A stretch of DNA of 64,000 bases from Chrysomallon squamiferum (Eukaryota > Animalia > Mollusca): the NCBI GenBank assembly GCA_012295275.1, contig CM022677.1, forward strand, positions 13,330,001 to 13,394,000, given 5' to 3'. The position numbers were made by a program, and so were the translations under genes. Positions 3,395 to 34,664 of this stretch are shown in pieces. Within the stretch, counting starts at the first letter, position 1. Every line of letters starts with the position of its first letter. Under the pieces are notes generated by a model. That model was not told where the DNA came from. It did not search any database and worked only from the letters and a program-made list of their open reading frames with translations.

Positions 3395-3795
3395 ACAGAG
3401 TTGAACAGACTGGCTTTTGGCTTTTTGACCAAATGTACTTTAACACCCGAAGGTGCATAGTCACGTGACATAACGTCATCTCAAAATAAATAAAAAAGTA
3501 TATAGGGTGGGGGGGAGTGAAAGACAAGACGTGATATATTGTCAACCTAACTCTTGTGATTTGTAAAACAAACAAAGATCTTCATTACTGGCTTTTGGCT
3601 TTTTAACCCGAAGGAGCATAAGTTAAAGTACATTTGGTCAAAAAGCCAAAAGCCAATCATGGGGAACTTTGTTTTTTTAACTTATGATCCTTCGGGTTTT
3701 GGCTTCGCCCGAAGGAACATTATCACCTTCGGGTTAAATCTATCAGGTCATTACAAAATTCATCCCGCACTCTGTTTTTTTTTCTTTGATGAGTA
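3395..3795. repeat. Scrambled left terminus of unit 1 (type A hairpin/ITR fragments)
   Basis: Contains TGGCTTTT iterons and the type A hairpin core (3679-3736). AAATCTATCAGGTCATTACAAAATTCA (3736-3762) is the reverse complement of the unit 1 right end at ~8572-8598. Confidence 0.85.
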
Positions 3796-4059
3796 AATAT
3801 TATTTAAACGGAATATGACGTCATATATGTTTTAATGACGTTATGTATATGACGTCATATCCGTTATAATTGCAAACGATATTAAGATTTCTAAATAATA
3901 TTTAAAATATTAATAATTAATTAATTAATTTTTAAAAATATTTTAATAATAACTAATTAATTTAATAATAATATATTAATATAACATTTTAATTTTAACA
4001 TTTTGTAACAGTTTTTAAACAGTTTTTAAACAGTAATTATGTTTACTTTTATTATTTAA

Positions 4060-5799
4060 TAAGTCTGATTTATATTTATTAAAAATGTCCATTTGGGTTT
4101 CCAGAATAGTTTCAGTAAACTGATCCAGGAATGGTTGTGTTTCATGTACGTATTACTTGAGTTTCTTTTGATCAGATTCTTCTGGTTCGATTCCTGCTGT
4201 TATGTAATGTTCGTCAATATCTTCATCCAATTTTCGTTTACTTCCTCTTTCTTGATTTTGTTGATCATTAATCTCATGTTGACTTTTAATAAATAAGTCT
4301 TGTGAAGGATTGTAACATTCAGTTACATCATTTTCATCTTCATCACTTGAAATCATAATATAGTCTATTTTATCATCTTTCTGATTATTTAACATTGGAT
4401 TTTGTGTTCCACGTACGGATTGGCTATCATCAAAATTATCTCTAAAATAGCTATTGCGTCCATCAAATGTGTTGTCATTGATGTTATTATTGTTTTTATT
4501 GTAGAAATATTCTCTGTCATTTTCCAATGCAATATTCATCTCATCATCTGTTGGATCGAATCCGATAGTAAACAACTCTGGATGCATGAGATTAGATGCA
4601 TTTTTTAATACGTCACTCTTCTTTAAGTCTTGAATAAAATAAAGTCTTGTCTTCATGATACTGATTTGACTTGTAGTCAAACCATCTCCAAACCGATTAT
4701 TTGAGTTTATCATACAAATATTTGCTCGGCAGTAGCATAGTGTTGTTCCCTTACGTTCACACTAAGCAAATCTTTATATTTATCGATATTTGTTTGATTG
4801 ATTGAAATTTCTTCTCCTAACACGATCTTTTTGTTTCCAAGCATCTGCCAAGGGAAATTGTCTTTCGCTATTTTTCCTGCGCATGATAAACATTCAAACA
4901 TGCTACTCGATATCATGGTCTTTCCATAATCTGACTCTCCTTGTAAATATATGCCGACCTTCTTTTTCCCTTTTCCTTTCAATAATGCAACAATCAAACA
5001 ATACAGCCATCTCTCTGGCAGATGTTCAACGCACCAACTATTGAATACTTTCAAACTGTCCTCTGGTGTCATGTAATGTTCAATAGTATCATTTAAGTTC
5101 ATACTTTGTTCAAAGGCATTTTTATCCGATTGTTCATCTAAGAATTTTGATCTAGCCGCTTTAAAAAGTTGTTCACCAGATGTGTTTGCAACCGAATTAC
5201 ATAATGCCTTAAATTCGTTCGTACTACTGTCAAATTTACTAATCAACATGTTCAGTTTGTTAACTTCTGGATGTTTTACGATCAAATTGTAGAAGAAATC
5301 CAACGTATCAGCTGACTTGTTGGTTAATAGATGTGAAGGAATATTGTCATTCTTTGTATTAATTGTAGCAGTTTTATCATCTTCCATCACTGTATTCTCT
5401 ATCTTAGCCTCAGATGAAGCTGTTCCTGCTCCGTGATTGATAGACATATTCATAGTTGTTGGTTCTGATTTCACTTTAATTTCATCTTTTCTGATAGGTT
5501 CCTATATGGCAGACATCATGGACATATCGTTAGAGATATCTTTATTGTCAAAAAAGTCCATCGGCTAAATATTCATGGCTGGGTGTTGCCCAATGGTCAA
5601 CCGGTTTGTCTAAGATATCCTGTGGATCCATCTGATAGCTTTTTATAAAGTTTTTACCTTGAGCATAGACGTATTTACCTTCTTTGTCCTTCACTAGGCT
5701 TCTCGGAACTAAATATTTGGGATGCACCATATCATATAATGGATGTCCAACAATTACGCTGTAATAACTGTCTTCCGGTAATTCAATGTATCTATCCAT
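4060..5799 (-). pseudogene. NS1: NS1/Rep of unit 1, fragmented; HUH nuclease region deleted
   Basis: ORFs 5548-5799, 4710-5474 and 4153-4713 align in order to the intact NS1 at 9774-11954. Walker A GESDYGKT and Walker B VLGEE are present. The sequence jumps from HEYLA to the DFFD region near 5560, removing the HxH motif. Confidence 0.92.
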
Positions 5800-5856
5800 T
5801 TTTTATCAATATAGTTATAATATGTTGAAACAATTCTTTTGTAATGAATAACAAAC

Positions 5857-5987
5857 GAATGAAAAATTAAATTGAAGCGTCTTTATTTATAACAAATGTA
5901 ACATGACGTCATCCAAATGACGTAATAATGTGTACGTGACATTAATAATGTTAACATTTAAAAATACTTTTAACTGTATTAATACGC
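5857..5987 (-). promoter_or_regulatory. Internal NS1 promoter, unit 1
   Basis: On the minus strand: TGACGTCA (5904-5911), TATAAATAAA (5891-5882) and TCATTC initiator-like (5862-5857). Same layout in all six units. Confidence 0.75.
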
Positions 5988-6011
5988 AAATATAAGCACT
6001 ATTTACATCAG

Positions 6012-8096
6012 TTATATTGGATATGACCAATCAGTAGTACTACCAGTAATGGGTACAGATCTATCACCATAGATTCCATGAATAGGCCAAATGAATCTAC
6101 GTCTATTTTTACGTTTAAACCAATTGTCCCATATAGGTGCAACAATTCGCATTCTCAATTGTTTTTCAATTCTCTCTTTATACTGTTTACCAGTTTCATC
6201 CAAAAACTGATCTTGTTCAGTATGTTTTACATTGTCTTTATTTCCTGTTGGTATAGTGTCATTAGCTTTGAAAAATAAACCCTGCATTGGTCCAGGACAT
6301 CCACCTAAACCTATCGGTATATATTTAGGACACATACCAGTTCTTACAACAAATTCAACTTATTTGAATATTAGCATGATAGTTAAAGAATAAAGTTGAT
6401 CCGCTAGTAGTTTTTTCTACATCTGGATATATTCCAATTAAAAACATGGGAGGTCTATTACACTGAAAAGTCCTTCTATTTGATCCATCTATACATGTAT
6501 TAACATTAGGATCATCAGCATCATTATAAGATACACCAGATTTAGCTATCTTGGTACCAGCATCATCTACCATACATGGAGCACCTAGATCTCTAGATGC
6601 TTTATGTTGGTAACATCCTTTATAATTAACAGACCTATATTGATGATTGAAATAGGTAGTAACTGCTGTTGCCATAGGATGTGTTGAAACATTAGTTACT
6701 GTAATTTCATGCGTTGGCCAAACTTCTAGATTATCTTTATTTTCATTGATATTTATCTTTTCTAATAGTCATTTGAGTAAAATTTAAAATGTGACTAATT
6801 TCACCTGGAAATATAACTAATGTTGAATCTTTACATGTATAATATAATCCAAATCCACCTGCACTGATAACTTTCTCTATAACCATCATGTTTTTTCATG
6901 TCATAAATGTAATTAGGTGTTTCAGCAGTGTAATTAATATTATCACTGTTTTGGGTCCATGCATTATTTAATAATTGCATACCTATGTCACTAGGTAAAT
7001 ACATTTTACGATCTGGTTGAACTGGTATAGCTCTATGAGATGTATTATCCATACACTCTTCATCTCTAAATCGATTGTTATGAGACAAATTTAAATGTCT
7101 ATCTGGTAAACCGTAATCATTGTAAATATCTGTAAATGTCCAAACACGTGCATTTGGTGGTGCCATTACAGGTACTTCGTTTGGATCTGATTTATTATTA
7201 TTTAGTACATGTATTATCATATTATTTATATTAAATCCAAATCTTTTAATTTTATAACCAACAAATTCATCTGGTAAATTCCAGTCCTCAGGTTTCGTAC
7301 TTGCTTGTTTGTACCAATAAGGTATGATATGTCCTCCATGATTAAATACAAATTCACATACATTAGGATCACCTATTGCTTTTTTCTAGTTAGTATTATC
7401 TGTACCATTATCTAATATTTTCATTGTAGCTTTTCTAGTTTTAGTAAAATTGATCACACTAGTAAATGTTCTTTTGAATGTCTTTTTAATAGTTATATAT
7501 CTAGGATTAGCTCCTTTAGTGGTTCCTCCAAATCCTTGATACAAAACGTTGTTACCTGTAGCTGAAGCCATCGTAGCACCTTCAACAGCTTCGCTTCCAC
7601 CTGTATCGGTAACCTCTTCATTCATTATTGAATCAGGCTCCATTACAGATTCTTGTGGTTGAAGGTATGTTCCTTTAGAATTAGATTGTTCAATTACATC
7701 TTGTGATATTCTATCTGATAATTGATTGTTATTAGGCACTTTGGAACTTGATCCACCTGCTGGTTCACTTGTTTGTCTCTTCATAGCTTGTTTTGATTCT
7801 GATCTTGGTCTATCTTGTATTTGTTCGTCTTCTGGGTATAAAGGTGTATTGAAAGGGTCCTCTTCGTCCGAATTCTCAAAATTGTTATTGTTTTCCCGAA
7901 GATCTTGTATTGCCTTATATAAACTTTGATTAGGTATTTGTAAATTTGGATACTGACGTCGTATTTGTAACCACCTATCTTGGCGTTGATCAACCGGCAC
8001 ATTTAAATCTGCTGATATAGATAATGCCTTCGATTTAGCTATTGCCCAAAGTCGTGTAACTTCTTTCTTATTCAGCAGACGTTTTCCTTTATTCAT
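6012..8096 (-). pseudogene. VP: Capsid (VP) gene of unit 1, frameshifted
   Basis: Four ORF fragments (7386-8096, 6831-7220, 6355-6675, 6012-6335) are collinear with the intact 708-aa ORF at 12139-14265. Confidence 0.9.
7781..8002 (-). CDS. Candidate overprinted ORF (ORF-X, 73 aa) in the +1 frame of VP
   Basis: ATG-initiated and homologous to equivalent ORFs in all five VP copies. Its TGA overlaps the ATG of an internal VP Met (AMKR). Confidence 0.5.
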   Translation of the reverse strand: MCRLINAKIGGYKYDVSIQIYKYLIKVYIRQYKIFGKTITILRIRTKRTLSIHLYTQKTNKYKIDQDQNQNKL

Positions 8097-8458
8097 GAAA
8101 TCGGACTGTTTCTATATATGTAATTTACGTATTCGTCCTCTTCTTGTTCTAAATCTTCTCGTTCAGATTTAGAAACGTTGTTATCCAATTCTTTTTCACC
8201 TGATTTAACTAAATCACCAAACTGATTTAATGCTTCTTGTATTTGATTTTTAGTATATGTAGAAATACCTTCAATTGACGATTCTACAATAGATTGTCCA
8301 ATAGCTGTAGCTGGCTCCAGGTCTATACTATCAGCTCCCAATATTTCAGTAATAGCAGGTACTGTAGATTCTATTATGGCAGATATAGCTATTTCCACTG
8401 AAGCATCAAAAGCATATTCGATAATTTCAGTTGCTATAATGCCTAAAGCTGTGAACAT
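8093..8458 (-). CDS. Small acidic viral protein (121 aa) upstream of VP; possible minor capsid/entry protein
   Basis: Intact ORF conserved in units 1, 3 and 4 and damaged in 2 and 6. Its stop overlaps the VP start as ATGA (8096-8093). Function is inference only. Confidence 0.85.
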   Translation of the reverse strand: MFTALGIIATEIIEYAFDASVEIAISAIIESTVPAITEILGADSIDLEPATAIGQSIVESSIEGISTYTKNQIQEALNQFGDLVKSGEKELDNNVSKSEREDLEQEEDEYVNYIYRNSPIS

Positions 8459-8542
8459 CCTATCGAAGCAATAGCTTGATTACAAATGAATTATATTTTA
8501 AAAATTAAATATTAAATATAAAATATTACGGAAATTACGTAA

Positions 8543-9127
8543 TACTCTTCAAAATAAAAAAGCGTGGGGGGTGAATTTTGTAATGACCTGATAGATTTCA
8601 ACCTAACTCTTGTTATTGTAAAAAAAACAAAGTTCCTCATGATCTGGCTTTTTAGCTTTTTGGCTTTTTGACCATAATGTACTTTTAGCCCGTAACTCTT
8701 GTTATTGTAAAAAAAACAAAGTTCCTCATGATCTGGCTTTTTAGCTTTTTGGCTTTTTGACCATAATGTACTTTTAACTTATGATCCTTAGGGTTCTGGC
8801 TTCGCCCGAAGGAACGTTATCACCTTCGGGCTAAAAGTACATTATGGTCAAAAAGCCAAAAAGCTAAAAAGCCAGATCATGGTGGAACTTTTTTTTTTTT
8901 TTTACAATAACAAGAGTTAGGTTGAAATTGCAAAGTTCCTCATGATCTGGCTTTTTAGCCTTTTGGCTTTTTGACCATAATGTACTTTTAGCCCGAAGGT
9001 GATAACGTTCCTTCGGGCGTAGCCAGAACCCGAAGGATCATATGTTAAAAGTACATTATGGTCAAAAAGCCAAAAAGCTAAAAAGCCATGTAGTGAGGAA
9101 CTTTGTTTTTTTTACAATAACAAGAGT
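8543..9127. repeat. Type A right ITR with a partial arm plus two full hairpins (flip then flop)
   Basis: Palindromic arms surround the core at 8776-8832. The core at 8990-9046 is its reverse complement with about three substitutions. Confidence 0.92.
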
Positions 9128-9427
9128 ATCCCAACTCAACTCTTGTGTAATTTTTAAAAAACAAACCCCAACTCAACTCTTGTGTAATTTTTAAAAAACT
9201 ATGTATAACTTTACTGGTTTTCTGGTTTTCTGGTTTTCTGATCTTGAAAGCCAATATGTACTTTTAACTTATGACCGTAGGGCTCGGGCTACGCCCGAAG
9301 GAGCTAGTCACCTTCGGGTTAAAAGTACATATTGGCTTTTAAGACCAGAAAACCAGAAAACCAGGAAAGTTATACATTGTTTTTTAAAAAATGCACAAGA
9401 GTTGAGTTGGGGTATATCATCATACCA
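9128..9427. repeat. Type B terminal hairpin (left end of unit 2), flip form
   Basis: Imperfect palindrome of ~245 bp, 9166-9412 (CCCCAACTCAACTCTTGTG...CACAAGAGTTGAGTTGGGG), with CTGGTTTT iterons and a GC-rich core at 9266-9320. Confidence 0.92.
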
Positions 9428-9773
9428 TTTTTAACCACGTGTTACATTAATATATTACTATTAAACTATACTTAATAATAATAACACATATATAATTATT
9501 CATATATTTTATTATTATTAATATATATATTTACATTATTTTATTAATGATTTTTATTATTAACATAACATTGTTATTATAATAACACATATATAACATT
9601 TATGAATATATATATTTATTAACAATAATATATATATATATATATGATTAATATTTTATTAACATATTTATTTTAATATTTAACAACCATATTAATACGT
9701 ATTTTAAATTATTTAATTCAACATTTTAATATAGAACTATAACAATGAACATAGTTTATAATGTTTATATGAA

Positions 9774-11954
9774 TTATTCATTCTTATATTTATCGAAAAT
9801 ATCCATTTGTGTTTCTTGAATGGTATCAGAAAACATTGCCTCGAATGGTTGTGACGGCGGAATATAAAATTTAAATTTTTTTTGACTGTCATGTTCTGGT
9901 TCATGATCGACTGTGATGTACTGAGGATCTATGCAATCTGTATCCGATACGTCTTCTGTTTCCACTTCGTAAAATTTTCTTTTAATGCCTTTCTCATGTT
10001 GACTGTTATCTTTGATTTTGTTTTGTGATTGTCTGAATAAATCTTGAGATGGATTATAAATGGTATCATCTTCTGAGTCGGAAATCACAATGTATTCAGG
10101 TTCTGTGTTTATAACCAGTTCTTTTTTAATATTAGGTTCATTAGTGTCTTCAGAACAATCTTGACTAGGATCGAAATGGTCGTGATAATAGCTGAGTCTT
10201 CCTTCGAAAGAATTGTCATTGTTATGTATGTTGTTAATGTTATTAAAGTATTCTCTATCGTTCTCAAGCGCTAAATTGATTTCGTCATCGGTAGGTTCAC
10301 GACCTACCGTAAACAGTTTTGGATGCAACAATCCATAACATTGCTTGAGAATGTTACTTCTCTTTAAGTCCTCTATGAGAAACAGTCTAGTTTTCATTAT
10401 TCGAATTTGTGTTGTTGTTAACCCATCACCAAATCTATTGTTTGAATTTAGTAAGCACAGGTTACCTCGACAATACACAGGAGTTGTGCCTTTCCGCTCG
10501 CAGGTAGCCTTCGATCCACTTAGTAAATCCTTATACTTATCGATGTTAGTCTGATTTATGGATATTTCTTCACCTAGAATTATTTTTTTATTGCCTAACA
10601 TCTGCCAAGGAAAATTGTCCTTGGCAATTTTACCGGCTGTTGGTACGCATTCGAATAATGAGCTAGATAGCATCGTTTTTCCACTGTCTGATTCTCCTTG
10701 AAAATATACACCAATCTTTTTTTTTCCTTTACCCTTCAATAATCCAACTATTAAACTATACATCCATCTTTCCGGTATTTCTTGTTCGACACACCACGAA
10801 TTAAACATCTTGAAACTATCATCCGGGCTCATGTAGTGGTCTATCTTATCGTTAAGTATTTTTAATTGTTCGAACGCTGTTTTCTCTGCTTGTTCTTCTA
10901 AATATTTCGATCTTGCTGCGTTAAAAAGTTTATCACCAGATGCATTGGCAACTGCATTGCACAGCGCTTTGAATTCATTGGTGCCTGATTCAAACTTACT
11001 AATTAGTAAGTTTAACTTGTTGACATCTGGATATTGTTTTATGAGGTTATAGAAGAACTCTAGAGTATCAGATGACTTTGTATTTATCAGATGTGACGGA
11101 ATAGATATTTTTTCTGAATCCATATTTTTAGCATTTTCGGAAGTATCCATTGATTGAATTATAATGTTATCTCTCTTGACTTCGTTTACTGTAAGTCCGT
11201 CTTGTTTATATCCCGATGTCGATGGTTGAACAATAGAGTCGTACTTCTTAACTGGATTTCTAATAGTACAGGCATTATTTTTATTCAATTTGCTTGTTGC
11301 TGAATCATCGAAAAAATCTCTCAAAATGTTGAGAATATCTGTGTCATTTTCATTTATTTCCTTTTCGATCGAATTCCATATTTGTAACATTCCTTCGTCG
11401 GTTGTTCCTAAATACTGTTTTTCATCATCAGACATCAAATATTTTATATAATCGTCTATCGTAGATTTTTGTGGATCGCGTAGTTTCATGATCTCCATGT
11501 ATCCACCTTCGCCTAACACTGCTCTATGTAGTCGCCTATACTGCCTGTCTTGAGACGGTGTTTTAAGGGATGTTTTCCAGATAACATGGCAGTGAGTCCC
11601 GTATGTTGGATGGTTAACATTTGATTGGCAGTCTTTTTGGTGGTATACTAACAATGTCTTCCAGGATTTATTCCTTAAAAAGGCTTTAAATTCATTAATG
11701 ACACGATCCTGGCCACGAGGAAGATTTTCATAATTGGGTGTTGACCAGTGGTCAACCACTTTATCTAAAAGATCTTGTAAGTCCATTTCATATGATTTAA
11801 TGTATTGCTTTCCGGTAGCATAAATGAAATTGCCATCCTTATCTCGTGCCAGACATCTTGGTACGAGATACTTCGGATGTACCATATCGTAGTTAAGATG
11901 ACCAATTACGACACTGTAAAAGATCTGATCTGGTAGATCAACAAATCTATCCAT
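9774..11954 (-). CDS. NS1: NS1/Rep, intact (726 aa): HUH endonuclease + SF3 helicase
   Basis: HUH motif GTHCHVIW, candidate catalytic Tyr in YIKYLM, Walker A GESDSGKT, Walker B IILGEE, B' region KDLLSG...ERKG and motif C LLNSNN. This matches the parvoviral NS1 architecture. Confidence 0.96.
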   Translation of the reverse strand: MDRFVDLPDQIFYSVVIGHLNYDMVHPKYLVPRCLARDKDGNFIYATGKQYIKSYEMDLQDLLDKVVDHWSTPNYENLPRGQDRVINEFKAFLRNKSWKTLLVYHQKDCQSNVNHPTYGTHCHVIWKTSLKTPSQDRQYRRLHRAVLGEGGYMEIMKLRDPQKSTIDDYIKYLMSDDEKQYLGTTDEGMLQIWNSIEKEINENDTDILNILRDFFDDSATSKLNKNNACTIRNPVKKYDSIVQPSTSGYKQDGLTVNEVKRDNIIIQSMDTSENAKNMDSEKISIPSHLINTKSSDTLEFFYNLIKQYPDVNKLNLLISKFESGTNEFKALCNAVANASGDKLFNAARSKYLEEQAEKTAFEQLKILNDKIDHYMSPDDSFKMFNSWCVEQEIPERWMYSLIVGLLKGKGKKKIGVYFQGESDSGKTMLSSSLFECVPTAGKIAKDNFPWQMLGNKKIILGEEISINQTNIDKYKDLLSGSKATCERKGTTPVYCRGNLCLLNSNNRFGDGLTTTQIRIMKTRLFLIEDLKRSNILKQCYGLLHPKLFTVGREPTDDEINLALENDREYFNNINNIHNNDNSFEGRLSYYHDHFDPSQDCSEDTNEPNIKKELVINTEPEYIVISDSEDDTIYNPSQDLFRQSQNKIKDNSQHEKGIKRKFYEVETEDVSDTDCIDPQYITVDHEPEHDSQKKFKFYIPPSQPFEAMFSDTIQETQMDIFDKYKNE

Positions 11955-12002
11955 ATTGTATAATATCTTTAGTTTAACTTATTACGTTAAAAGATAATTG
12001 AC

Positions 12003-12132
12003 AACTGACAAACTTTCAAAACGTTCTTTATTTATACAATTATGTACATGACGTCACACAAATGACATAATATGGCGTACGTGACAAAATGAACGTAACG
12101 TTATTAAAAGACTAATCACTGTATTCATACGC
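12003..12132 (-). promoter_or_regulatory. Internal NS1 promoter / probable VP polyadenylation signal, unit 2
   Basis: TGACGTCA (12049-12056), TATAAATAAA (12036-12027) and TCAGTT initiator (12008-12003) with its A 30 nt from the TATA start. Conserved GCGTATGAATACAGT at 12132-12118. Confidence 0.8.
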
Positions 12133-12138
12133 ATATAA

Positions 12139-24724: not shown

Positions 24725-24732
24725 GTAATAGT

Positions 24733-26841
24733 TTATATTGGATATGACCAATCATTTCCGTTTCCCATAGTTTCTAACGTTCTATCAACATATGCACCAT
24801 GTAATGGCCAAAGTTGTCTACGTCTATTTCTACGTTTATTCCAATTATCCCATATAGGTGCAAATGTTCTCATTTTCCATGTTTTGCTTATTCGTTCCTT
24901 ATATTTAGCTGCGTCTTCACCTAAAAACTGATCTTGTTCAGTATGTTTAACATTATCTTTATTGCCCATTGGTGTACTGTCATCTTTTTTAAAGATAAGA
25001 CCTTCCATATTACCAGGACATCCTCCTAATCCTATTGGAATGTATTTAGGACACATTCCAGTTCTTACAATAAATTCAATTTCACTATAATATGTTATTT
25101 GAATATTAGCATGATAATTGAAAAATAACGTATTTCCACCGCTTGTTTTTTCTATGTCTGGATATAGTCCTATCAAAAACATAGGAGGTCTATTACATTG
25201 ATAGGTACGTCTATGTGATCCGTCTTTGCAAACATCAATATTAGGATTATTAGCATTATTATGCATAACGCCCTGATTACTAAGTTTAGTACCTCCATCA
25301 TCTACCATAGAAGGTGCACCCAGTACATTAGATGCTTTATTTTGAAAACATGCTGTATAATGTATACGTCTGTACTGATGAATAAAATAACAACATATTG
25401 CTGTTCCCATTGGATGGTCAGTTGTATTAGTAATCACTATATCATGGGTTGGCCACACCTCTAAATTACCCTTATTTTCATTAGCACATTGATATTTAGA
25501 TTTCTGACATAAACCAGATATATCTGTAAAATTAAGTGTATGAGATGTTTCAGATGGAAATAAAACTGTTGGTGAATCTTTACATGTATAATCTAATGCA
25601 AAACCACCAGCACTAATAACAGTTTCACGATATCCATCATGCTTTTTCATATCGTAAATATAATTGGGCGAAAATGTTTTATATTCTAAACCATCACCTG
25701 TCCAAGCATGATTTAGTATTTGCATTGCCATATCACTTGGTAAATATAATTTTCTATCTGGTTGTACTTTTATACTTCTATTAGATATATCATCCATACA
25801 TTCTTCATCCATAAAATAATAATTGTGAGATAAATTTAAATTTTTCTCAGGCAATCCGTAATCATTATTTACATCTGTAAACGTCCAAATTCTAGCATTA
25901 GGTGGAGCCATTACAGGTACTTCGTTAGGATCAGATTTATTATTATTCAATACATGAACAAGCATATTATTTATATTACGTTTTCTATATCCCATAAAAT
26001 CGTCAGGTAAATTCCAATCCTGAGCGGTAGTACTAGCAGCTTTATACCAATACGGTATTATGTGCCCACCGTGATTAAATGTGAATTCACATACATTCGG
26101 ATCACCTATTCCTTTTTTCCAATTTACATTATCAGAATTATTATCTAATACTTTCATAAGTGCTTTACGTTCTTTAGTAAAGTTAATAGTACTAGTAAAT
26201 GTTCGTTTAAATGTCTTTTTGATAGTTATATATCGTGGATCTGTATACTTAGTTGATCCTCCAAAACCTTGATATAAAACATTATTACCAGTTGCCGACG
26301 CCATAGGTGCACCTTCCACTGCTTCACTTCCGCCAGTATCTGTAACTTCTTCATTCATTATGGAATCCGGTTCCATAACAGATTCTTGAGGTTGTAAATA
26401 CGTTCCCTTAGAATTCGATCTGTCTAATACATCTTGAGAAACTGTATTGGACAATTGTTTATTATCTCGAACCTTTGAATCGGTTCCTCCAGATGGTTCA
26501 GATGAGTGTCGTTTCATAGCTGATTGATCTGGATATCCGGATGTGTCTTGTAAATTTCCTTGTTGTTCTTGGTTATCGTAGAATAAAGGGGACCCGAAAG
26601 GGTCGTCTTCGTCCGAATCTTCAATAGAGTGATAGTCTTGCCCAATATTTTGAATTGCCTGATAGAAATCGTTATTCGGAATTTGTATATTTGGATACTG
26701 ACGTCGGATCTGAAGCCACCTTTCTTGTCGTTTTGAATAGGGGACATTTAGTTCAGCTAATTTGTTAAATGCTTTAGATTTTGCTATAGCCCACAGACGA
26801 GTTACCTCTGGCTTCGTCAAAAGTCTTTTGCCTTTTGTCAT
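24733..26841 (-). CDS. VP: Capsid protein (VP), 702 aa, small in-frame deletions
   Basis: Collinear with the 708-aa copies. GYRKRNINNM replaces GYKVKKIGFSINNM, a likely damaging deletion in a conserved strand. Confidence 0.83.
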   Translation of the reverse strand: MTKGKRLLTKPEVTRLWAIAKSKAFNKLAELNVPYSKRQERWLQIRRQYPNIQIPNNDFYQAIQNIGQDYHSIEDSDEDDPFGSPLFYDNQEQQGNLQDTSGYPDQSAMKRHSSEPSGGTDSKVRDNKQLSNTVSQDVLDRSNSKGTYLQPQESVMEPDSIMNEEVTDTGGSEAVEGAPMASATGNNVLYQGFGGSTKYTDPRYITIKKTFKRTFTSTINFTKERKALMKVLDNNSDNVNWKKGIGDPNVCEFTFNHGGHIIPYWYKAASTTAQDWNLPDDFMGYRKRNINNMLVHVLNNNKSDPNEVPVMAPPNARIWTFTDVNNDYGLPEKNLNLSHNYYFMDEECMDDISNRSIKVQPDRKLYLPSDMAMQILNHAWTGDGLEYKTFSPNYIYDMKKHDGYRETVISAGGFALDYTCKDSPTVLFPSETSHTLNFTDISGLCQKSKYQCANENKGNLEVWPTHDIVITNTTDHPMGTAICCYFIHQYRRIHYTACFQNKASNVLGAPSMVDDGGTKLSNQGVMHNNANNPNIDVCKDGSHRRTYQCNRPPMFLIGLYPDIEKTSGGNTLFFNYHANIQITYYSEIEFIVRTGMCPKYIPIGLGGCPGNMEGLIFKKDDSTPMGNKDNVKHTEQDQFLGEDAAKYKERISKTWKMRTFAPIWDNWNKRRNRRRQLWPLHGAYVDRTLETMGNGNDWSYPI
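26514..26747 (-). CDS. Candidate overprinted ORF-X (77 aa)
   Basis: Same start, length and ATGA-overlapping stop as in units 2 and 3. Confidence 0.5.
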   Translation of the reverse strand: MSPIQNDKKGGFRSDVSIQIYKFRITISIRQFKILGKTITLLKIRTKTTLSGPLYSTITKNNKEIYKTHPDIQINQL

Positions 26842-27203
26842 GAAACTGGTATACGCGTATATATATATGATACGTTTTCGTCTTCTTCAGCCTCTATCTG
26901 ATTGCGTTCAGCAGGTGTGACGTCAGTATCTATATCGTTTCTCTCTGATTCTATAAAATCACCTAATTCATTAATTGCTTGTTCGATCTGATTTTTAGTA
27001 TAATCAGCTATTCCTTCGACAGCCGATTCAACTACAGACGTTCCAATATTAATAGCAGGATCTATTAATATACTATCAGCTCCTATTATTTCTGTGATAG
27101 CTGGTGCAGTGGATTCTAATATAGCAGATGTAGCGATTTCAACAGATGCATCAAATGCGTACTCAATTAATTCGGTAGCTATTATTCCCAATGCTGTGAA
27201 CAT
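26838..27203 (-). CDS. Small acidic viral protein (121 aa), intact
   Basis: The ATG at 27203 gives MFTALGII... with the same length as the other copies, and the stop overlaps the VP start as ATGA. Confidence 0.85.
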   Translation of the reverse strand: MFTALGIIATELIEYAFDASVEIATSAILESTAPAITEIIGADSILIDPAINIGTSVVESAVEGIADYTKNQIEQAINELGDFIESERNDIDTDVTPAERNQIEAEEDENVSYIYTRIPVS

Positions 27204-27305
27204 CCTACTATCAATAAATAATATCAAATGAAGATACTATAATAATTAATATATATATAGTAAATATACCGGATATGACGTAATATATCACGTGTCAATG
27301 AATCG

Positions 27306-27454
27306 GGATGATGAGATATCCCAACTCAACTCTTGTGTAATTTTTAAAAAACTATGTATAACTTTTCTCGCTTTTTGGTTTTTTGGTCTTAAGTATCAAT
27401 GTGTACTTTTATCCCGAAGGTGACTAGCTCCTTCGGGCGTAGCCCGAGCCCTAC
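27306..27454. repeat. Type C right ITR of unit 4, truncated inside the hairpin core
   Basis: Reverse complement of ~21981-22130; breaks off at GAGCCCTAC where unit 5 begins. Confidence 0.9.
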
Positions 27455-30034
27455 AAAGCGAAAAACGATTCTTAGTGTAACTTTGTTTATTCATAAATAA
27501 CAAGAGTTGATGTGATCTATCATCATCTGATTTTTTATAATAGCTTAATATAGTTAACAATTTATATATGTTTATAGTTATATATGTTAAACTATTTAAT
27601 ATATAACATAGAACAAATAGATTTAAAATTTTTTATTTAAACAGATTTAACAGTTTTAATATTTTTAAACTTTTAAATAAGTTAACATATTTTAACATTT
27701 TAAATGTCATTCATATTGAATGGTTGGCTAGGTTCAATGTAATGTTTAAATCTTTTATCCAATGGATCTTCTGGTTCGTAATCGACGATGATGTAATTAG
27801 GATCTAATGATCCTTCATCATCTGTCATAGCTTCATCCCTTTTACGCTTTTTACCTTGCGATAAGACAAAAAGATCTTGAGAAGGATTGTAATATTCTTC
27901 ATCAAATGCATCTTTACATTCCTTTTTTATATCCGTTTGACTTTCATCAAAGTTATCAGTAAAGTAACTAAATCTGCCTTCAAACGTATTGTCGTTTTTA
28001 CTGATATTATTCTTATTTGCAAAGTATTCACGATCATTTTCCATGGCGATTGTCATTTCATCATCCGAAGGTTCTCTTCCAATCGTAAATAACTTTGGAT
28101 GAAGCAGATTGTAACAGTTCTTTAACACTTGGCTTCTTTTCAATCCTTGAAGAAGAAACAATCGAGTCTTCATAATACTGATTTGCGAGGTAGTAAGGCC
28201 ATCTCCGAACTTATTGTTCGAATTGATAATACATATGTTAGCTCGACAGTAACATGGTGTCGTTCCTTTCCGTTCACAAGTTGCCTTACTACCGCTCAAC
28301 AAGTCTTTGTACTTATCAATGTTTGACTGTGTAATCGATATCTCTTCTCCAAGTATAATCTTTTTATCACCTAACATCTGCCATGGGAAATTGTCTTTAG
28401 CGATCGTTCCAGATGTATTCAAACATTCGAATAGCGAACTGATATCATTGTTTTCCCACTGTCAGATTCACCTTGTAAATACAGTCCAATCTTTTTCTTG
28501 CCTTTGCCTTTTAACAATGATACTATAAGACAATACAGCCAACGTTCTTCTATATATTGTTCCCTACACCACGAATTAAATATTTTAAAACTATCTTCGG
28601 GTGTCATGTAATGATCGATATTATCGTTGACCATTTTGATTTGTTCATAGGCAGTTTTATCAGCTTGTTCTTCCATATACTTTGATCGTGCTGCTTTGAA
28701 CAGTTTATCGCCAGAAGAGTTGGCAACAGCATTGCATACAGCTTTAAACTCATTACTGTTTGTATCGAATTTACTGATGAGTAAGTTTAGTTTGTTAATA
28801 TCAGGATACTGTGTAATCAATTTATAAAAGAAATCTAGAGTTTCAGCTGACTTGTTATTAATCAAATGTGATGGAATAACAGGTTTGTCTTCTTTCTTTA
28901 TATCTGATACATCCATTAGTTCAATGACAGCATCTTCAATCTTCATTTCTTTAGCAGTCATTCCAGCCGTAGACGTACTAGGTACACTATCTGTCATGTC
29001 TTTCTTTAAAATAGGTTCTCTAATTTTCGGAGTGATTACAGCATTATCTGTAGTTTCTGGAGTATCGAAAAAATCATGTAATATGTTTTTGATCTCGTAA
29101 TCGTTCAGATTGATATTTTTATCAATGTCGTTCCATATATCTAGCATCATTTGATCATTTGTTCCTAAGAACTGTTTTTCTGTATCGTTCATCAAGTATT
29201 CCATGTAATGTCTAATTGATGCATCTTGTGGATCTTTCAGCTTCATTATCTTAACGTAACCATCTTCGTTGAGAACAGCTCTATGCAATCTACGATACTG
29301 TCTATCTTGAGAAGGCGTTTTAAGATTAGTTTTCCAAATAATATGAACATGGTTACCATATGTACGATGATTCGTAATAGCCTCACATTCTTTCTGGTGA
29401 TAGACCATGAGAGTATTCCAATTCTTGTTTCTGACGAAAGCTTTCAATTCTGTAATCACTCTATGTTGTCCTTTATTCAGGTATTCGTATTTCGGAGTAG
29501 CCCAATGATCAACTAATTTATCGATGACATCTTGGTTATCCATTTGATACGATTTAACGTACTTTCTTCCAATGGCATAAACATAGTTGCCATCTTTATC
29601 TTTAACAAGACAACGAGGTATCAAGTATTTAGGGTGAACCATATCATAGTTGACATGGCCCACAAGTACACTGTAATAATGTTCTTCAGCTGATTCTACA
29701 AATCTATCCATTTTCCTTTCTATACGTTACTGGTATACGTTTATATAAAATGAAGTCAATGACTTTGAACGTTTTTCGATTTTAGCTTTATTTATACTAT
29801 ATATATATAATGACGTCATTATCATTACTTCATATTTAAATATGTAACAAATGAACGTTATTTCAAATGTAGACTGTTCACTGTATTCATACGAACCTAA
29901 TAACATTATGTCTTTTAATCTATATAATTATTTTAATATTATTATGTTATTAAAAAATCAGATGATGATAGATCACATCAACTCTTGTTATTTATGAATA
30001 AACAAAGTTACACTAAGAATCGTTTTTCGCTTTG
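27454..30034 (-). mobile_element. NS1-only element (unit 5, ~2.6 kb) with perfect 84-bp terminal inverted repeats
   Basis: 27454-27537 is the exact reverse complement of 29951-30034. The interior holds only NS1 and its promoter (TGACGTCA 29811-29818, TATAAATAAA 29796-29787), with no VP or small-ORF sequence. Confidence 0.9.
27700..29711 (-). pseudogene. NS1: NS1 of unit 5, one frameshift just after Walker A, shorter C-terminus
   Basis: ORF 28419-29711 (GNHVHIIW, GESDSGKT) and ORF 27700-28422 (IILGEE, IINSNN) join with a 1-nt correction near 28442. Confidence 0.92.
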
Positions 30035-30059
30035 ATAATAACTTAAACCACGTGGTTTG

Positions 30060-30312
30060 AATTGGGGGATGATGAGATATCCCAACTCAACTCTTGTGTA
30101 ATTTTTAAAAAACTATGTATAACTTTCCTCGCTTTTTGGTATTTTGGTCTTCATAATCAAAAGTACATAGTATAAGCTTAACACGTTATAACGGCGGCTA
30201 AAGCCGCCATATAGTGCATGTTACTATGATAATAACAATAACAAGAGTAGAGTTGATAATCTATCATATCTTGCATTTTCACACCCCCACTCCTATTTTT
30301 TATTTTGAAGAG
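30060..30312. repeat. Terminal remnants: partial C-like arm, a different hairpin core, and A-like left ITR of unit 6
   Basis: 30066-30150 resembles 27306-27390. GGCGGC-TAAA-GCCGCC stem-loop at 30194-30209. 30238-30312 resembles the reverse complement of 8543-8617. Confidence 0.75.
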
Positions 30313-30518
30313 TATATCATTTAAACGGATATGACGTCATATCCGTTTTTTTAAATGACGTTATTTTATATGACGTCATTTCCGTTATATTTAAATAATT
30401 AACTAAACGAAGGTAATTAATTTTAATAAATAATTTTATTTCAAGAAATAACTTTTAGTGAACATTAATATCAACGTAACAACAATAAATCAGCACTGAT
30501 GTCTTTTAATGTTTATTT

Positions 30519-32328
30519 TTATTGTTTATAACGTTTAAATATGTCTATTTGTGTCTCTTGAATTGTTTCTGTGAAGTCGTCGTAGAACGGTTGAGATTCC
30601 GGTATGTAGATCTTTAATGTTTTGTTATTTGAAGGCGGTGTGGGAGACACCAGTTCATCCTCTTCTTCTAATTTACGTTTACTACCTTTGTTTTCATCAG
30701 ATTCACCTTTGAATCGTTTCTGACTCTGTATGAAGAGATCCTGCGAAGCACAATAATTATTTTCCTGTTCTGGTTCGTCATCGTCTGACGATATCTCGAT
30801 ATATTTTCTTTTGTTAGGTGATGAATTGCAAAGTATATGTGTTTTTGACTGTCTGACTGTCATCAAAGTTATCTCTGAAATAACTATTCCTGCCGTCGAC
30901 TGTATTGTCATTTATATTGCTATTATGTTTTAGTCTAAAATATTCCCTGTCATTTTCCAAAGCTATCATCATTTCGTCCTCTGTAGGTTTGAAACCGATT
31001 TTGAATAATCCTGGATGTATCAGATTATAGGCTTGCTTCAATGTATCACTTTTCTTTAAATCCTGTAGAAAATAGAGTCGGGTTTTCATTATACTGATCT
31101 GACTAGAGGTGAGTCCGTCTCCAAACGGGTTGTTAGAGTTGATCATGCATAGATTAGCTCGACAGTAGGTTTAAACTGTCATCTGGTGTCATGTAATTAT
31201 CGATGTTTTCCGATAATGACAGAATCTGGTCGTATGCGTTCTTGATAATGACAGAATCTGGTCGTATGCGTTCTTGTCTGCTTCCTCTTCCATGTATTTC
31301 GATCTAGCAGCCTTGAATAGCTTTTCTCCTGATTTGTTAGCTACATATAGCTTTAAACTCGTTACTGTTACTGTCATATTTGCTGATTAACAAATTCTGT
31401 TTGTTCACGTCTGGATGTTTAACTATTAGTTTATAAAAGAAGTCAAATGTATCAGCTGATTTGTTCGTTATCAGATGAGATGGAACTAGTTGATCCTGTT
31501 TTCGTCTTCAGGTATAGTTTCTAACATCACTTCCTCCATCTTAGCTGCTGCGGAAGATGTTCTTTTGCCGTGATTCACGACAGGAGATGATGTTGCACTC
31601 TTATTGGAATTGACGTCTTCCTTTCTCACAGGCACTTTGATATCGGAAATAATTGTACTGTTATCTTTTATTGGTTGATCGTCAAAAAAATCTAACAGAA
31701 CGTTCATTAAGTCTTCTTCCTCCTCTTTGGAACATTTTTCTGTTTCGTTCCAAATGTGTAGCATCTTTTCGTCATTTGTTCCTAAATACATCATCTCCGA
31801 ATCGTTCATCAAATACATCATGTAGTTTTCTACAGATGTACATTGTGGATCCTTCAATTTACGAATCCTGATGTATCCATTTTCATTTAAAATTGCACGA
31901 TGGAGTCGTTTGTATTGTCTATCTTGTGATGGGGTCTTCATGTTAGTTTTCCATATAATGTGAACGTGAGAACCATAAGTAGGATAATTACTTTCTACTT
32001 GACAATCTTTTTGATGATATACTAATAGTATCTTCCAGTTCTTGTTTCGTATAAAGGATTTCAATTCTGTCACGACTCTGTCCTGTCCTTTTGCCAGATA
32101 TTCATAATTGGGCGTGGCCCAATGATCCAAAGTCTTGTCTAATATGTCTTGCTGATCCATCTGGTAGCTTTTAATATAATTCTTGCCTGGTGCGTAAACG
32201 TATTTACCTTCTTTGTCTTTAGCTAGAGATCTGGGTACCAAACATTTCGGGTGTACCGTGTTGTAACTGGTGTGTCCTATAACCACACTATAATAACTAT
32301 CTCCAACGGTTTCAACATATCTATCCAT
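30519..32328 (-). pseudogene. NS1: NS1 of unit 6, fragmented; Walker A/B region deleted
   Basis: HUH GSHVHIIW is retained in 31486-32346. A large deletion lies at ~31169 and a ~31-bp tandem duplication at ~31212-31274. C-terminal fragments span 30519-31146. Confidence 0.9.
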
Positions 32329-32405
32329 TATTAATCCTGATGACAATCAAAATTAAATTTATATGTTTGTTTAAAACATTCAATTTCATGTAACAGATAA
32401 CAAAC

Positions 32406-32538
32406 AAATGAGTAATTTTTTCGCTGAACGATCTTTTATTTATAACGTTATGAACATGACGTCACAAACATGACGTAATAAATGTTACGTGACTAAATTA
32501 ACGTAAATATTAACAGACTTTTAACTGTATTCTTACGC
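32406..32538 (-). promoter_or_regulatory. Internal NS1 promoter, unit 6
   Basis: TGACGTCA at 32457-32464, TATAAATAAA at 32444-32435 and TCATTT at ~32411-32406. Confidence 0.72.
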
Positions 32539-32576
32539 AACTATGAGAAAGTATTTTCATTTATTTATTTTTGTTT

Positions 32577-34267
32577 TTATACTGGATAAGACCAATCTCC
32601 TGTAATAGTTACACTTCTATCTCCATAAGCACCGTGTACTGGCCAGATAAATCGTCGTCTGGCTTTACGTTTATTCCAATTGTCCCATATAGGGGCATAT
32701 ATTCTCATTTTCCATGTTTTTTCGATTCGATCTTTATATTGTTTTACAGTTTCATCTAAGAATTGATCTTGTTCTGTATGTTTCACATTGTCTTTATTTC
32801 CTACAGGTGTTCAATTTAAAAAAAAGTCCTGACATAGTACCTGACGGACATCCACCCAAACCTATAGGTATGTATTTTGGACACATTGCCGTTCTGACTA
32901 AAAACTCCACCTCGCTATAATAAGTTATTTGTATGTTAGCATGGTAATTAAAGAATAATGTAGCTCCGTTGCTAGTTTTCTCTACATCAGGGTATAAACC
33001 TATTAGGAACATAGGAGGTCTATTGCATTGATAAGTGCGTCGGTGTTTACCGTCCATGCACGTGTTCACATTTGGATTATCTAAATCATTGCTAGATATA
33101 CCGCTTTTACCTAGTTTGGTGCTAGCATCATCTGCCATCGATGGTGCTCCTAAATCTTTACCAGCTTTATTTTGATAACAAGCTGAATAGTGTACATTTC
33201 TGTATTGATGGTTAAAATAGGTGGTGATAGCAGTCCATACATTCTTCATCTTTGAATCGATTATTATGAGATAGGTCCAAATGTTTATCAGGTAATCCAT
33301 AATCATTATAAATATCTGTAAATGTCCAAACTCGTGCATTTGGAGGTGCCATTACTGGTACTTCGTTTGGATCTGATTTAGTATTATTTGAAACATGTAT
33401 TATCATATTATTTATATTAAATCCGAATTTTTTAATTTTATAGCCTACAACCTCATCAGGTAAATTCCAATCGTCTGCCTTCGTGCTAGCTGCTTTATAC
33501 CAATAAGGTATAATGTGACCACCATGATTGAATGTAAATTCACATACATTTAGATCACCTATTGCATTTTTCCATGCTGAAGCATCTGTTGCATTATCTA
33601 TAACTGACATACTAGCTTTTCTTTGTTTAGATAAATTAATCTCACTAGTGAATGTTCGTTTAAATGTTTTTTTAATGGTAATATACCTCGGATTAGCTCC
33701 AGACGTTGTACCTCCAAATCCTTGGTATAAAACGTTATTTCCTGTAGCAGAGGCCATAGGAGCACCTTCACTTCCACCTGTATCAGTTACCTCTTCGTTC
33801 ATGATAGAATCAGGTTCCATTACGGACTCTTGAGGTTGAACATACGTTCCTTTGGAATTATATTGATCCAATACATCTTGTGATATCCTCGTAGATAGTT
33901 GATTATTATTATTAGGAACTTTGGAGCTAGATCCTCCTCCAGGTTCGATGTTTTGTCGTTTCATGCCTTGTTGTTCTGATGCTTTTAATGCTTGTTCGTC
34001 TTCTGGGTATATAGGCGTATTAAAAGGGTCCTCTTCGTCTTGATCTTCAATATGGTTATATTCGTTCCGAATATTTTGTATTGCCGAATAGAAATCTTGA
34101 TTTGGAATCTGTAAATTTGGATATTGACGTCGAATTTGTAACCACCTGTTTTGGCGCTGATCCACCGGCACATTTATCTCTGATAATATATCAAATGCTT
34201 TAGCTTTAGCTATAGCCCAAAGTCTGGTAACGTCCTTCTTGTTTAATATACGTTTCCCTTTATTCAT
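32577..34267 (-). pseudogene. VP: Capsid (VP) gene of unit 6 with internal deletion and frameshifts
   Basis: Fragments 33212-34267, 32794-33339 and 32577-32786. The sequence jumps from DEECMD to TAITTY near 33234. Confidence 0.9.
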
Positions 34268-34629
34268 GAAATTGGACTAGTAGTACGCATATATGATACG
34301 TATTCGTCCTCTTCAGTTTCCAATTCCTCTCGTTCTTCAGATTAAACGTTATTATCTACTGCTGTATCTTTTGAATTCACAAAATCAGTGAATTGATCCA
34401 AAGCGTCCTTTATTTGAGTTTTAGTATAGCTAGCAGTGCTTTCTACAGAAGATTCAACTATACTTTGTCCAATAGCAGTCGCTTGAGGTAGATATACACT
34501 GTCAGCTCCGACAATTTCGGCTATAGCTGGAGCGGTAGAATCTATAATAGCTGATGTAGCAAGTTCCACTGATGTATCAAACGCAAATTCAATGATTTCA
34601 GTAGCAATTATACCCAAAGCTGTGAACAT
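34264..34629 (-). pseudogene. Small acidic viral ORF of unit 6 with premature stop
   Basis: MFTALGII... with a stop at 34344-34342. Homology continues to the ATGA overlap at 34267-34264. Viral sequence ends about 30 nt upstream, with no right ITR. Confidence 0.87.
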
Positions 34630-34664
34630 CCTAATTCAACAACTGATAATAATCAAATGAACAA

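Follow-up and report, generated by a model that had tools for sequence, protein, structure and literature searches.

The Rep-mediated integration of AAV2 at AAVS1 was reportedly described by Henckaerts in 2009. In AAV Rep integration, the target is described as being nicked and the locus as being partly duplicated (PMC3413126). The endogenous densoviruses of Echinococcus multilocularis reside in the germline, have hairpins of ~230 nt and include several head-to-tail concatemers with intact and broken copies; they represent one virus, with capsid versions that are 91-97% identical and NS1 located before the capsid gene (PMC6880638). The jumbled IHHNV EVE of Penaeus monodon is a cluster bounded by a 591/590-bp repeat, the interior of which differs between genomes and consists of inverted, jumbled fragments of one virus (~99% identical) (PMC8982415), and the segmented densovirus of Acheta domesticus has its NS cassette on a terminal-repeat-bounded segment of its own (PMC10267136).

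The locus reported here lies in a 64,000-nucleotide stretch of Chrysomallon squamiferum DNA (contig CM022677.1, positions 13,330,001 to 13,394,000), referred to as the window. It resembles the E. multilocularis loci in that germline parvovirus-like copies with terminal hairpins are arranged head to tail and show mixed decay, but differs in that its units show 62-93% identity and saturation at synonymous sites, that the capsid gene precedes NS1 and that nested duplications suggest an order of arrival. Like the P. monodon element, it groups parvoviral EVE sequence at a shared locus; in contrast to that element, it comprises whole genomes of different lineages in one orientation. Its fifth unit appears as an NS cassette with its own ends, as in the A. 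domesticus virus, although the window contains no matching capsid-only segment.

Six parvovirus-like units occupy positions 3395..34662 of the window, all on the minus strand and head to tail, with only hairpin-end DNA between them. All 28 tblastn segments for NS1, capsid and small ORF are on the minus strand, the unit junctions are made of hairpin, promoter and small-ORF pieces, and a blastn and tblastn comparison of the flanks with the array yielded no match, in agreement with the original observation of a single orientation without host DNA between units. The gene order per unit is unusual: a 121-aa ORF is followed by the capsid gene and then by NS1, and in all five units that have both genes, the two share a strand and lie within the hairpin pair, the capsid gene being 5' of NS1. 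At the left edge lies a pile of rearranged A-type hairpin pieces (3395..3737) with an orphan promoter-side end that has no unit body of its own (~3455-3604; 120 matches and 25 mismatches to the left end of unit 1). Unit 1 (3738..8600; NS1 ~4063-5799, capsid 6012-8096, small ORF 8093-8458) is followed by unit 2 (9165..14540; NS1 9774-11954, capsid 12139-14265), in which the small ORF is cut at 14535-14540 and the own promoter end is missing, and by unit 3 (15153..20657; NS1 15662-17842, capsid 18028-20154, small ORF 20151-20516), the NS1 gene of which has one in-frame stop. Unit 4 covers 21931..27454 (NS1 22372-24546, capsid 24733-26841, small ORF 26838-27203). Units 3 and 4 are ~5.5 kb each and have matched ends (239/240 and 154/154 letters, the latter at 21981-22134 and 27301-27454). 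In unit 5 (27455..30034), NS1 (27700-29711) is the only gene; its conserved promoter is present, and the unit has 84-nt matched ends of its own; capsid and small-ORF genes are both absent. It is separated from unit 6 by a stretch (30035..30234) consisting of an orphan C-like end (30035-30160), which is 90-95% like the unit 4 ends and inverted relative to a right end, and a short hairpin linker. Unit 6 (30235..34662; partial right end, NS1 30519-32328, capsid 32577-34267, small ORF 34264-34629) is without left hairpin or promoter, and its small ORF abuts a high-copy host repeat on the minus strand (34663..34900), likely a retroelement piece, which matches the RNase H profile PF00075 weakly (E 0.0023, short of the curated cut-off). 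The flanks contain retroelement-like pieces, an MRVI1-family exon at ~53.8 kb and a predicted exon at 2231-2418, for which no homologue was found; the array strand is opposite to both exons.

Units 3 and 4, with their ~5.5 kb and palindromic hairpin ends, agree with the 4-6 kb hairpin-bounded genomes of Parvoviridae. NS1 matches the Parvo_NS1 SF3 helicase profile PF01057 above the cut-off (E 4.6e-10 and 1.5e-8), and its best matches among PDB sequences are parvoviral NS1 and AAV Rep. In its N-terminal region, which no profile matched, relatives share conserved H-x-H and Y-x-x-Y motifs; these may be HUH motifs. Four close relatives of NS1 were retrieved (44-53% identity), while matches to named parvoviruses were confined to the helicase core. 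For the capsid protein no sequence-level match was found, but an AlphaFold model (mean pLDDT 61) retrieved parvovirus capsids in all matches listed from the PDB (best E 8.2e-10) and likewise from BFVD (best E 8e-14), and the protein is predicted to be a single jelly-roll of parvoviral fold. The 121-aa ORF has no family in Pfam, where weak THDPS_N matches were ignored, or in the Atlas (best 0.79). In Parvoviridae, the NS gene is on the left and the capsid gene on the right (PMC11357303), a layout found in none of the five units with both genes. On account of this difference the units are filed here as parvovirus-like; membership in the family is likely but not claimed. A permuted arrangement, in which an NS1-capsid genome would carry its hairpins at mid-length, was ruled out because matched ends bracket capsid plus NS1 and the linker between the two is conserved in all six units. 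Unit 5 may be an NS1-only segment or, instead, a defective genome. Searches of viral_contigs and metagenome_contigs yielded neither free or named relatives with context nor a free genome closely related to the units, and the literature searched, in which subscription journals are largely missing and supplements fall outside, contained neither a multi-lineage parvoviral array nor a capsid-first parvovirus; tables of EVE surveys could already contain the locus. The array would bring to light an unnamed lineage in which the gene order is reversed and which has a small ORF that is conserved and, possibly, a segment with NS1 only.

The six units are not copies of one insertion, as had been proposed from the sequence: codon identity between pairs of units ranges over 62-81% in NS1 and 72-93% in the capsid gene. 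The dN/dS comparison put forward as a check gave values of 0.09-0.17 for the capsid in ten of ten pairs, and for NS1 dS was saturated in 13 of 15 pairs, with dN/dS of 0.035-0.046 in the remaining two. Because capsid dN/dS is low and synonymous sites in NS1 are near saturation, we conclude that the units diverged as free viruses under purifying selection, before insertion; tandem duplication after insertion with neutral decay is ruled out by the dN/dS values. The suggested relationship between units 1 and 6 was recovered in four of four trees (support 100/99 for NS1 DNA, 100/100 for capsid DNA and 96/93 for NS1 protein), the capsid protein tree leaving the fork open. Mosaic structure is seen in units 2 and 3, which agree at 97-100% in the first 240 codons of the capsid gene but at 81% in NS1, and units 2-4 form a clade with mosaic genes. 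The ladder of the tree matches the physical order of the units, which is suggestive only, given that 4 of 24 interior orders would fit from one end or the other and that the position of unit 5 is not fixed in the protein tree. "At least five lineages", as predicted, holds as a lower bound, because additional hairpin ends exist that belong to no unit body.

Decay is distributed unevenly over the array. Units 1 to 6 have 7, 0, 1, 2, 1 and 6 frame breaks, respectively, counts that are upper limits for the window because two of the four interior breaks are absent from contigs of three DNA runs. Thirteen of the 17 breaks fall in units 1 and 6, which hold 33% of the codons (binomial P 2.6e-4), and large deletions accompany the many frameshifts there, as anticipated: 132 codons of NS1 are lost in unit 1, and deletions of 110 and 131 codons accompany the six breaks in NS1 and capsid of unit 6. 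A greater age of the outer units is supported. Of the original claim "oldest outside, youngest inside", the stronger decay of the outer units stood, but the youngest unit would be unit 2, beside unit 1 and not central. Units 2-5 cannot be separated by decay; their description as carrying few lesions fits the break counts but is misleading for unit 5, because its capsid and small-ORF cassette is missing. Private changes at invariant sites (4-5% in unit 1, 5-7% in unit 6, 4% in unit 5, 0.3-2% in units 2-3 and 0.4-3.6% in unit 4) were set aside as an age measure, being confounded by tree position, and so were CpG ratios, which did not sort the units by age.

The junctions provide information on the order of arrival. 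Unit 2 is bracketed by two blocks, T1 (8243..9266) and T2 (14534..15254, on the far side of the unit), which form a direct repeat with 720 of 721 aligned letters identical plus one 303-nt indel. T1 contains part of the small ORF of unit 1 with its promoter, A hairpins, a 37-nt piece of an orphan hairpin and a unit-3-type left arm. The A-type hairpin block (8595..9127) consists of a partial arm (8595-8692), a full hairpin (8693-8919) and a second hairpin with flipped loop (8931-9127); a second copy at 21532..21930 is identical to 8693-9086 in 393 of 394 letters, one homopolymer indel aside, so that units 2+3 are bracketed by the two copies. Adjacent to this second copy are scrambled copies of the left end of unit 3 and a second unit-3-type hairpin (20654..21312; the hairpin, at 21024-21312, matches the unit 3 right hairpin in 239 of 240 aligned letters), followed by the orphan hairpin B' (21313..21531) with perfect 94-nt arms. 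B' shows 11-15 differences in ~95 letters to the ends of units 2, 3 and 4, and its first 37 nt recur (37/37) at 9129-9165 and 15117-15153. Within the assembled window, these three nested direct repeats (720/721, 37/37 and 393/394) would correspond to the duplication seen in AAVS1-type integration, and they bear out the proposal of repeated later insertion into the interior. Because the repeats are nested around unit 2 and around units 2+3, the likely order of arrival is unit 4, orphan hairpin B', unit 3 and finally unit 2. The divergence of the duplicates gives no order by itself, because all are about equally young. Growth was likely one-sided and not symmetric, because all three events that can be placed in order adjoin the left hairpin of unit 1. 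Units 5 and 6 are placed by decay and position only; no target duplication was found for them or for the outer ends of the array, the longest shared flank word being 8 nt.

We consider the chances somewhat better than even that the array consists of six separately evolved genomes and grew by serial insertion at resident hairpins, likely started by an NS1 nick. Each newcomer would enter by copying at the end of a resident hairpin, and junction DNA next to it would be duplicated: synthesis arriving at the resident hairpin would switch template to the similar hairpin of an incoming genome, copy it and return to the chromosome 0.04-1 kb upstream, and the return upstream would rebuild the hairpin target in every round. 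The right hairpin of unit 2, half resident in type and half its own, and the microhomology at the opposite end of that unit, both described below, favour such copying. A starting nick by the NS1 of the incoming virus is likely by analogy with the AAV precedent and the HUH-like motifs. CRISPR arrays, which acquire spacers at the leader end, and serial phage integration at dif likewise grow from one side, rebuild their target and record order. This is an analogy only, as our locus has no dedicated host integrase and no fixed repeat length, duplications measuring from 37 to about 1000 nt, and its units are whole genomes. The likeness to AAV2/AAVS1 extends to an HUH/SF3 replication protein (HUH here putative), hairpin ends, partial target duplication and junctions rearranged inside terminal repeats (PMC3413126, PMC2900306); differences are that the target is the end of an earlier provirus and not a host look-alike site, that dependence on NS1 is putative and that the events are inherited, repeated and due to different viruses.

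A Rep/NS1 landing pad fits this anatomy, but similar traces would be expected from host repair acting at palindromes. The same serial history could have arisen if palindromes stalled forks or broke and incoming genomes were captured via hairpin similarity and microhomology, with no NS1 nick. This we regard as unlikely, though deserving serious attention. The right hairpin of unit 2 (9165-9413) is chimeric, with a left arm identical to the unit 3 type (102/102) and a right arm of its own with seven mismatches; the switch point lies at the arm/loop edge, and the opposite end joins the duplicate through 6-nt microhomology. Scrambled DNA at 20654-21050 and the very stable folding of the ~240-nt palindromes (z -21 for the A-block copy at 21532-21772, which forms a single long hairpin; z -29 for the unit 3 right hairpin at 15153-15401) also agree with repair, and latent AAV is often rearranged at its terminal repeats (PMC2900306). 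Several other joins lie at loops or in mid-arm, off the stem base, and NS1 is therefore not required there. On the other hand, complete hairpin ends are fused at a conserved 9-nt stem-base motif at 9127/9128, 21312/21313 and 21531/21532, the motif occurs 24 times, always inside the array, and the one orientation of 28/28 segments is not predicted by random capture at breaks.

Serial insertion, by whichever start, also has to be weighed against mixed concatemers from one or two co-infections that were integrated whole, with the nested repeats arising from later rearrangement in place. Multicopy concatemers predominate in latent AAV (PMC2900306) and are known as endogenous densovirus loci (PMC6880638), the clade of units 2-4 with its mosaic genes is what co-circulating strains would give, and decay does not separate units 2-5. 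We nevertheless judge this history improbable: frame breaks are concentrated in the outer units, and the repeats bracket whole units and contain unit 1 DNA, which a concatemer of newcomers would not.

Reads were mapped on 22400-35250 only, i.e., on the side of units 4-6, in 4 of 12 runs; units 1-3 and their junctions lie outside this range. Unit 4 is present in three of three DNA runs, 2.4-kb contigs from two studies span 27508-29980 of unit 5, which varies between runs as an inherited allele would, and unit 6 is covered in four of four runs by contigs that follow its deleted form. DNA runs from three studies all contain units 4-6, with relative depths that are similar between studies and contig depths of 55-94 for both units 4 and 5, and the presence of units 4-6 in the germline is supported as far as reads were mapped. 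The contigs listed include none that bridges the unit 4/5 or 5/6 joins. Variant letters at the capsid start of unit 4, considered as a signal of units 2 and 3, matched in one of seven cases (4/11 of all letters); they therefore stem from another relative and are no presence test for units 2-3. An assembly artefact, in which dispersed, allelic or episomal genomes were joined via similar hairpins, could produce near-identical junction blocks by false duplication; the window may contain errors, to judge from one-letter differences that the three DNA runs have in common, and sequence like unit 6 has 3-9 times the depth of units 4 and 5. Such an origin is nonetheless highly improbable in view of the recurrence just described, the non-homologous join between unit 2 and T2 and the structural difference between T1 and T2. 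In addition, five runs contain 68-85% of the words of 1-10000, the flank making up only 34% of those words, and, by eye, a loose end in run X1 agrees with the junction of A block and orphan piece at 9100-9165.

Selection could, in addition, have retained the array as an antiviral small-RNA or antisense source, without targeted insertion. All units share a single strand opposite to the neighbouring exons, retroelement-like pieces lie in the flanks, unit-6-like sequence is covered in one RNA run, a contig of which extends across the join with the repeat (the repeat itself has a depth of 1500-6000 in DNA runs), and densovirus EVE-derived piRNAs have been reported in an insect. However, this RNA run, for which no strand is given and which may contain DNA, has almost no cover on the bodies of units 4 and 5, and target duplication is left unexplained. 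As the sole explanation we hold it to be quite improbable, but it is compatible with serial insertion as a second layer.

If serial insertion at resident hairpins, started by NS1, is true, the locus would be a time-ordered record of infections and a natural, inherited case of integration with target duplication under the direction of a parvoviral replication protein, so far known mainly from AAV in cultured cells; it would also show that later relatives can be drawn to a provirus. In this one locus the germline entry of non-retroviral DNA viruses becomes testable and, should the order be true, so does the rate of virus lineage change, the units being ordered samples through time. More tentatively, and with rather less confidence, we propose that the capsid-first lineage may use old proviral hairpins as a self-renewing landing pad, with unit 2 as the newest and unit 6 as the oldest arrival, orphan hairpins as the remains of lost genomes and at least one further host with arrays of the same making. 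The genome contains additional relatives outside the window, and the array locus is therefore not an exclusive target. Sister viruses (~50% identity) also appear to be clustered, on other contigs: in ENA, two or three divergent copies fall on contigs of the same length.

Comparison of the window with itself resolves six blocks related to one another, spanning about 3400 to 34660 (units 1 to 6: 3738-8600, 9165-14540, 15153-20657, 21931-27454, 27455-30034 and 30235-34662). When the open frames of the window were used as tblastn queries, 28/28 segments lay on the minus strand, which bears out the single orientation of all units claimed in the original prediction. Read from its promoter end, a complete unit consists of a 121-aa open reading frame, a capsid gene (about 708 codons), a linker of 160-230 nt and an NS1 gene (about 726 codons). 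The units terminate in palindromes that measure about 240 nt and have predicted folds at z -21 and -29. NS1 matches Parvo_NS1 (E 4.6e-10), and solved parvoviral NS1 and AAV Rep structures give weak sequence matches to it. The capsid sequence has no match in Pfam or PDB; its structural model (mean pLDDT 61, from a 33-row alignment) retrieves parvovirus capsids throughout the matches listed by Foldseek, and Atlas features likewise point to a parvovirus capsid, though recognition is low. In all five units having both genes, the capsid gene precedes NS1 on the same strand inside matched ends, which are identical at 154/154 positions in unit 4 and at 239/240 in unit 3. In contrast, a review places NS on the left and the capsid on the right in all parvoviruses, in the sections available to us (PMC11357303), and in the literature, incompletely covered and supplements aside, we found no capsid-first genomes. 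Given this capsid-first order against the reviewed rule, we call the units parvovirus-like and place them in no genus.

The small open reading frame (units 1-4 and 6; e.g., 20151-20516) specifies an acidic protein of 121 aa with a hydrophobic start, for which no protein family was found in Pfam or Atlas. Its dN/dS between units (0.14-0.34) indicates purifying selection, and in units 1-4 its stop overlaps the capsid start codon; our guess is that it might take the place of a minor capsid protein's unique region. In unit 5, NS1 is accompanied by the conserved NS1 promoter and by matched 84-nt ends of the unit's own; resemblance to the other units breaks off near the stop codon of the capsid gene. 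Unit 5 may represent either a defective genome or one segment of a genome, in the latter case comparable with the segmented densovirus of Acheta domesticus as described in the part of that report available to us (PMC10267136). At both ends of unit 5 (27455 and 30034) the repeat is truncated at an identical position, which is not the case in the other units.

The claim that the units are not copies of one insertion is borne out by capsid dN/dS, which is low throughout (0.087-0.170 across 10/10 pairs) and not near 1, and by saturation of synonymous sites in NS1 in 13 of 15 pairs, the remaining two having dN/dS of 0.035 and 0.046. Judged by their sequences, the units represent separate viruses. 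Trees group them as (1,6) and (4,(2,3)) with unit 5 apart, so that the expected kinship of units 1 and 6 is recovered. Units 2 and 3 are mosaics: their capsid genes (13463-14274 and 19352-20163) are 97-100% identical in codons 1-240, versus 81% in NS1, with exact runs of up to 234 nt, either through recombination between viruses or through gene conversion inside the array. In addition, no fewer than three ends lack a body, namely a left-edge promoter end, the orphan hairpin B' (21313-21531) and a C-like end (30035-30160). No sequence shared between the flanks and the array was found.

The order of arrival follows from the nesting of repeats, not from their divergence. Blocks 8243-9266 and 14534-15254 bracket unit 2 and are identical at 720/721 aligned letters, with one 303-nt indel. 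Since the block flanking unit 2 contains the unit 1 promoter end, the unit 1 hairpins and the left arm of the unit 3 hairpin, and thus DNA of both, units 1 and 3 already adjoined when unit 2 arrived. The right hairpin of unit 2 is chimeric, with a left arm of unit 3 type (102/102), a flipped loop and a right arm different by 7 letters; at the other end the unit breaks off within the small open reading frame and is joined to the duplicate via a 6-nt microhomology. One level outward, the first 37 nt of B' are repeated across unit 3 (37/37); a level beyond that, 21538-21930 repeats the A-hairpin block (8693-9086) directly before unit 4 (393/394 and a homopolymer indel). For units 5 and 6, no such bracketing repeats were found in the window. 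In the simplest reading of these sequences, unit 4, B', unit 3 and unit 2 would have arrived in this order, each on the unit 1 side of its predecessor, and the near identity of all nested repeats argues that the insertion events were recent.

The nested repeats are known from the assembly only, save for one loose end in the DNA run X1 found on visual inspection to match the join between the A block and the B' piece. Part of 1-10000 was found in 10 of the 12 runs compared, and five runs from three studies hold 68-85% of the words of this stretch, 34% of which is flank. All 30 bins of 22400-35250 are covered by X1, X3 and X5, DNA runs from three studies; none of the contigs listed for this stretch shows a bridge over the 4/5 or 5/6 joins. 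Contig depth, which reflects copy number only roughly, is 57-85 on unit 4 and 55-94 on unit 5; two runs cover the latter with 2.4-kb contigs, in one case carrying a 44-nt deletion. We regard it as very unlikely that the array is an artefact. Contigs resembling unit 6 (30235-34662) are 3-9 times deeper than units 4-5 and have other joins, one of seven variant letters on unit 4 matches unit 2 or 3, and a unit 4 relative absent from the window was seen in DNA and RNA runs (26678-26897). The deeper contigs and the unmatched letters point to further relatives elsewhere in the genome, and by this sequence evidence more copies or arrays exist in the organism. The RNA run X6, in which DNA carry-over is possible, covers unit-6-like sequence and crosses its join to the flanking repeat, and hardly touches units 4 and 5.

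Frame-aware alignment of NS1 (first 600 codons) and capsid yielded 7, 0, 1, 2, 1 and 6 frame breaks for units 1 to 6, counts that are upper limits because contigs of the runs do not show two of the four interior breaks, nor at least one in unit 6. Of the 17 breaks, 13 fall in units 1 and 6, which make up one third of the codons (P 2.6e-4) and are the only ones with deletions of 110-132 codons, in keeping with the large deletions and many frameshifts foreseen for them. The contrast with the interior units remains despite the upper-limit counts. Few lesions had been expected in units 2-5, which agrees with their break counts, but unit 5 is an NS1 without a capsid cassette. The proposed sequence from oldest outside to youngest inside likewise stands in part: the outer units are the most decayed, but by nesting the newcomers each lie on the unit 1 side.

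As a mechanism, DNA synthesis would arrive at a resident hairpin, switch to an incoming genome through its similar hairpin, copy that genome and return to the chromosome upstream, whereby the target would be duplicated. According to the accessible parts of two reports, AAV Rep nicks AAVS1 and integration partly duplicates the target (PMC3413126), and wild-type AAV favours Rep-binding sites, with concatemers rearranging at terminal repeats (PMC2900306). The end of an old provirus is the best possible site of the Rep-binding type. A conserved stem-base motif occurs 24 times in the window, only inside the array; several joins fuse ends at this motif, others at loops or mid-arm. We lean towards serial insertion started by NS1, and consider it rather unlikely that the same serial history was produced by host repair at palindromes. 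That the array was retained mainly as a small-RNA source appears very unlikely. That the locus is a self-renewing, time-ordered landing pad is offered tentatively.

Head-to-tail endogenous parvoviral arrays are already known; the arrival order from nested repeats is the new result. In the portions available to us, endogenous densoviruses of Echinococcus form head-to-tail concatemers (PMC6880638) and a jumbled IHHNV cluster of shrimp has a 591-bp repeat at its bounds (PMC8982415); both consist of copies of one virus, whereas the present array contains different viruses. An origin of this array as one-time concatemers seems quite improbable. Complete endogenous elements of a divergent parvovirus are described from beetles in the accessible text (PMC13426907), and a word search found neither 'tandem' nor 'concatemer' in the main text of a survey of vertebrate endogenous elements (PMC9707805). 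In the literature, covered incompletely and without supplements, no account was found of multi-lineage arrays with target duplication.

The nearest relatives are ENA and Logan proteins with 44-53% identity. Among proteins P0001-P0079 (ENA) and P0007-P0040 (from Logan as far as looked up) is a sister lineage with identity of about 50%, present as copies on contigs of equal length. The relatives' cluster members fall on contigs of few lengths, and those of 60905 nt and 297455 nt carry three NS1 starts each, 77-95% alike, and several capsid pieces, placement on a shared contig being judged from equal length alone. No loci were found in viral or metagenome contig collections. More distant capsids (25-36% identity; 43 at E<=1e-10), of which the examples looked up sit on contigs of 3-7 kb and fall in no Pfam family, make up a large virus group that has no name.

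In the left flank, decayed frames at 732-1105 on the plus strand have no Pfam match and resemble the Ty3/gypsy retrotransposon RT/RNase H linker. A host exon is predicted, with clear splice signals, at 2231-2418 on the plus strand, roughly 1 kb to the left of the array; no homologue was found for it. To the right, several short minus-strand frames at 41484-42114 look like decayed gene pieces (no Pfam match), a cytochrome c oxidase subunit II fragment (44006-44128, minus strand; PF00116, E 8.3e-6) is probably mitochondrial DNA copied into the nuclear genome, and an exon of the MRVI1 family occupies 53793-54083 on the plus strand (PF05781, E 1.8e-6, above cut-off), from which the host is recognised as an animal. 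Microsatellites abound in the right flank, which also contains a minisatellite at 59738-60060 (66-nt units, 4.9 copies, 94% matches).
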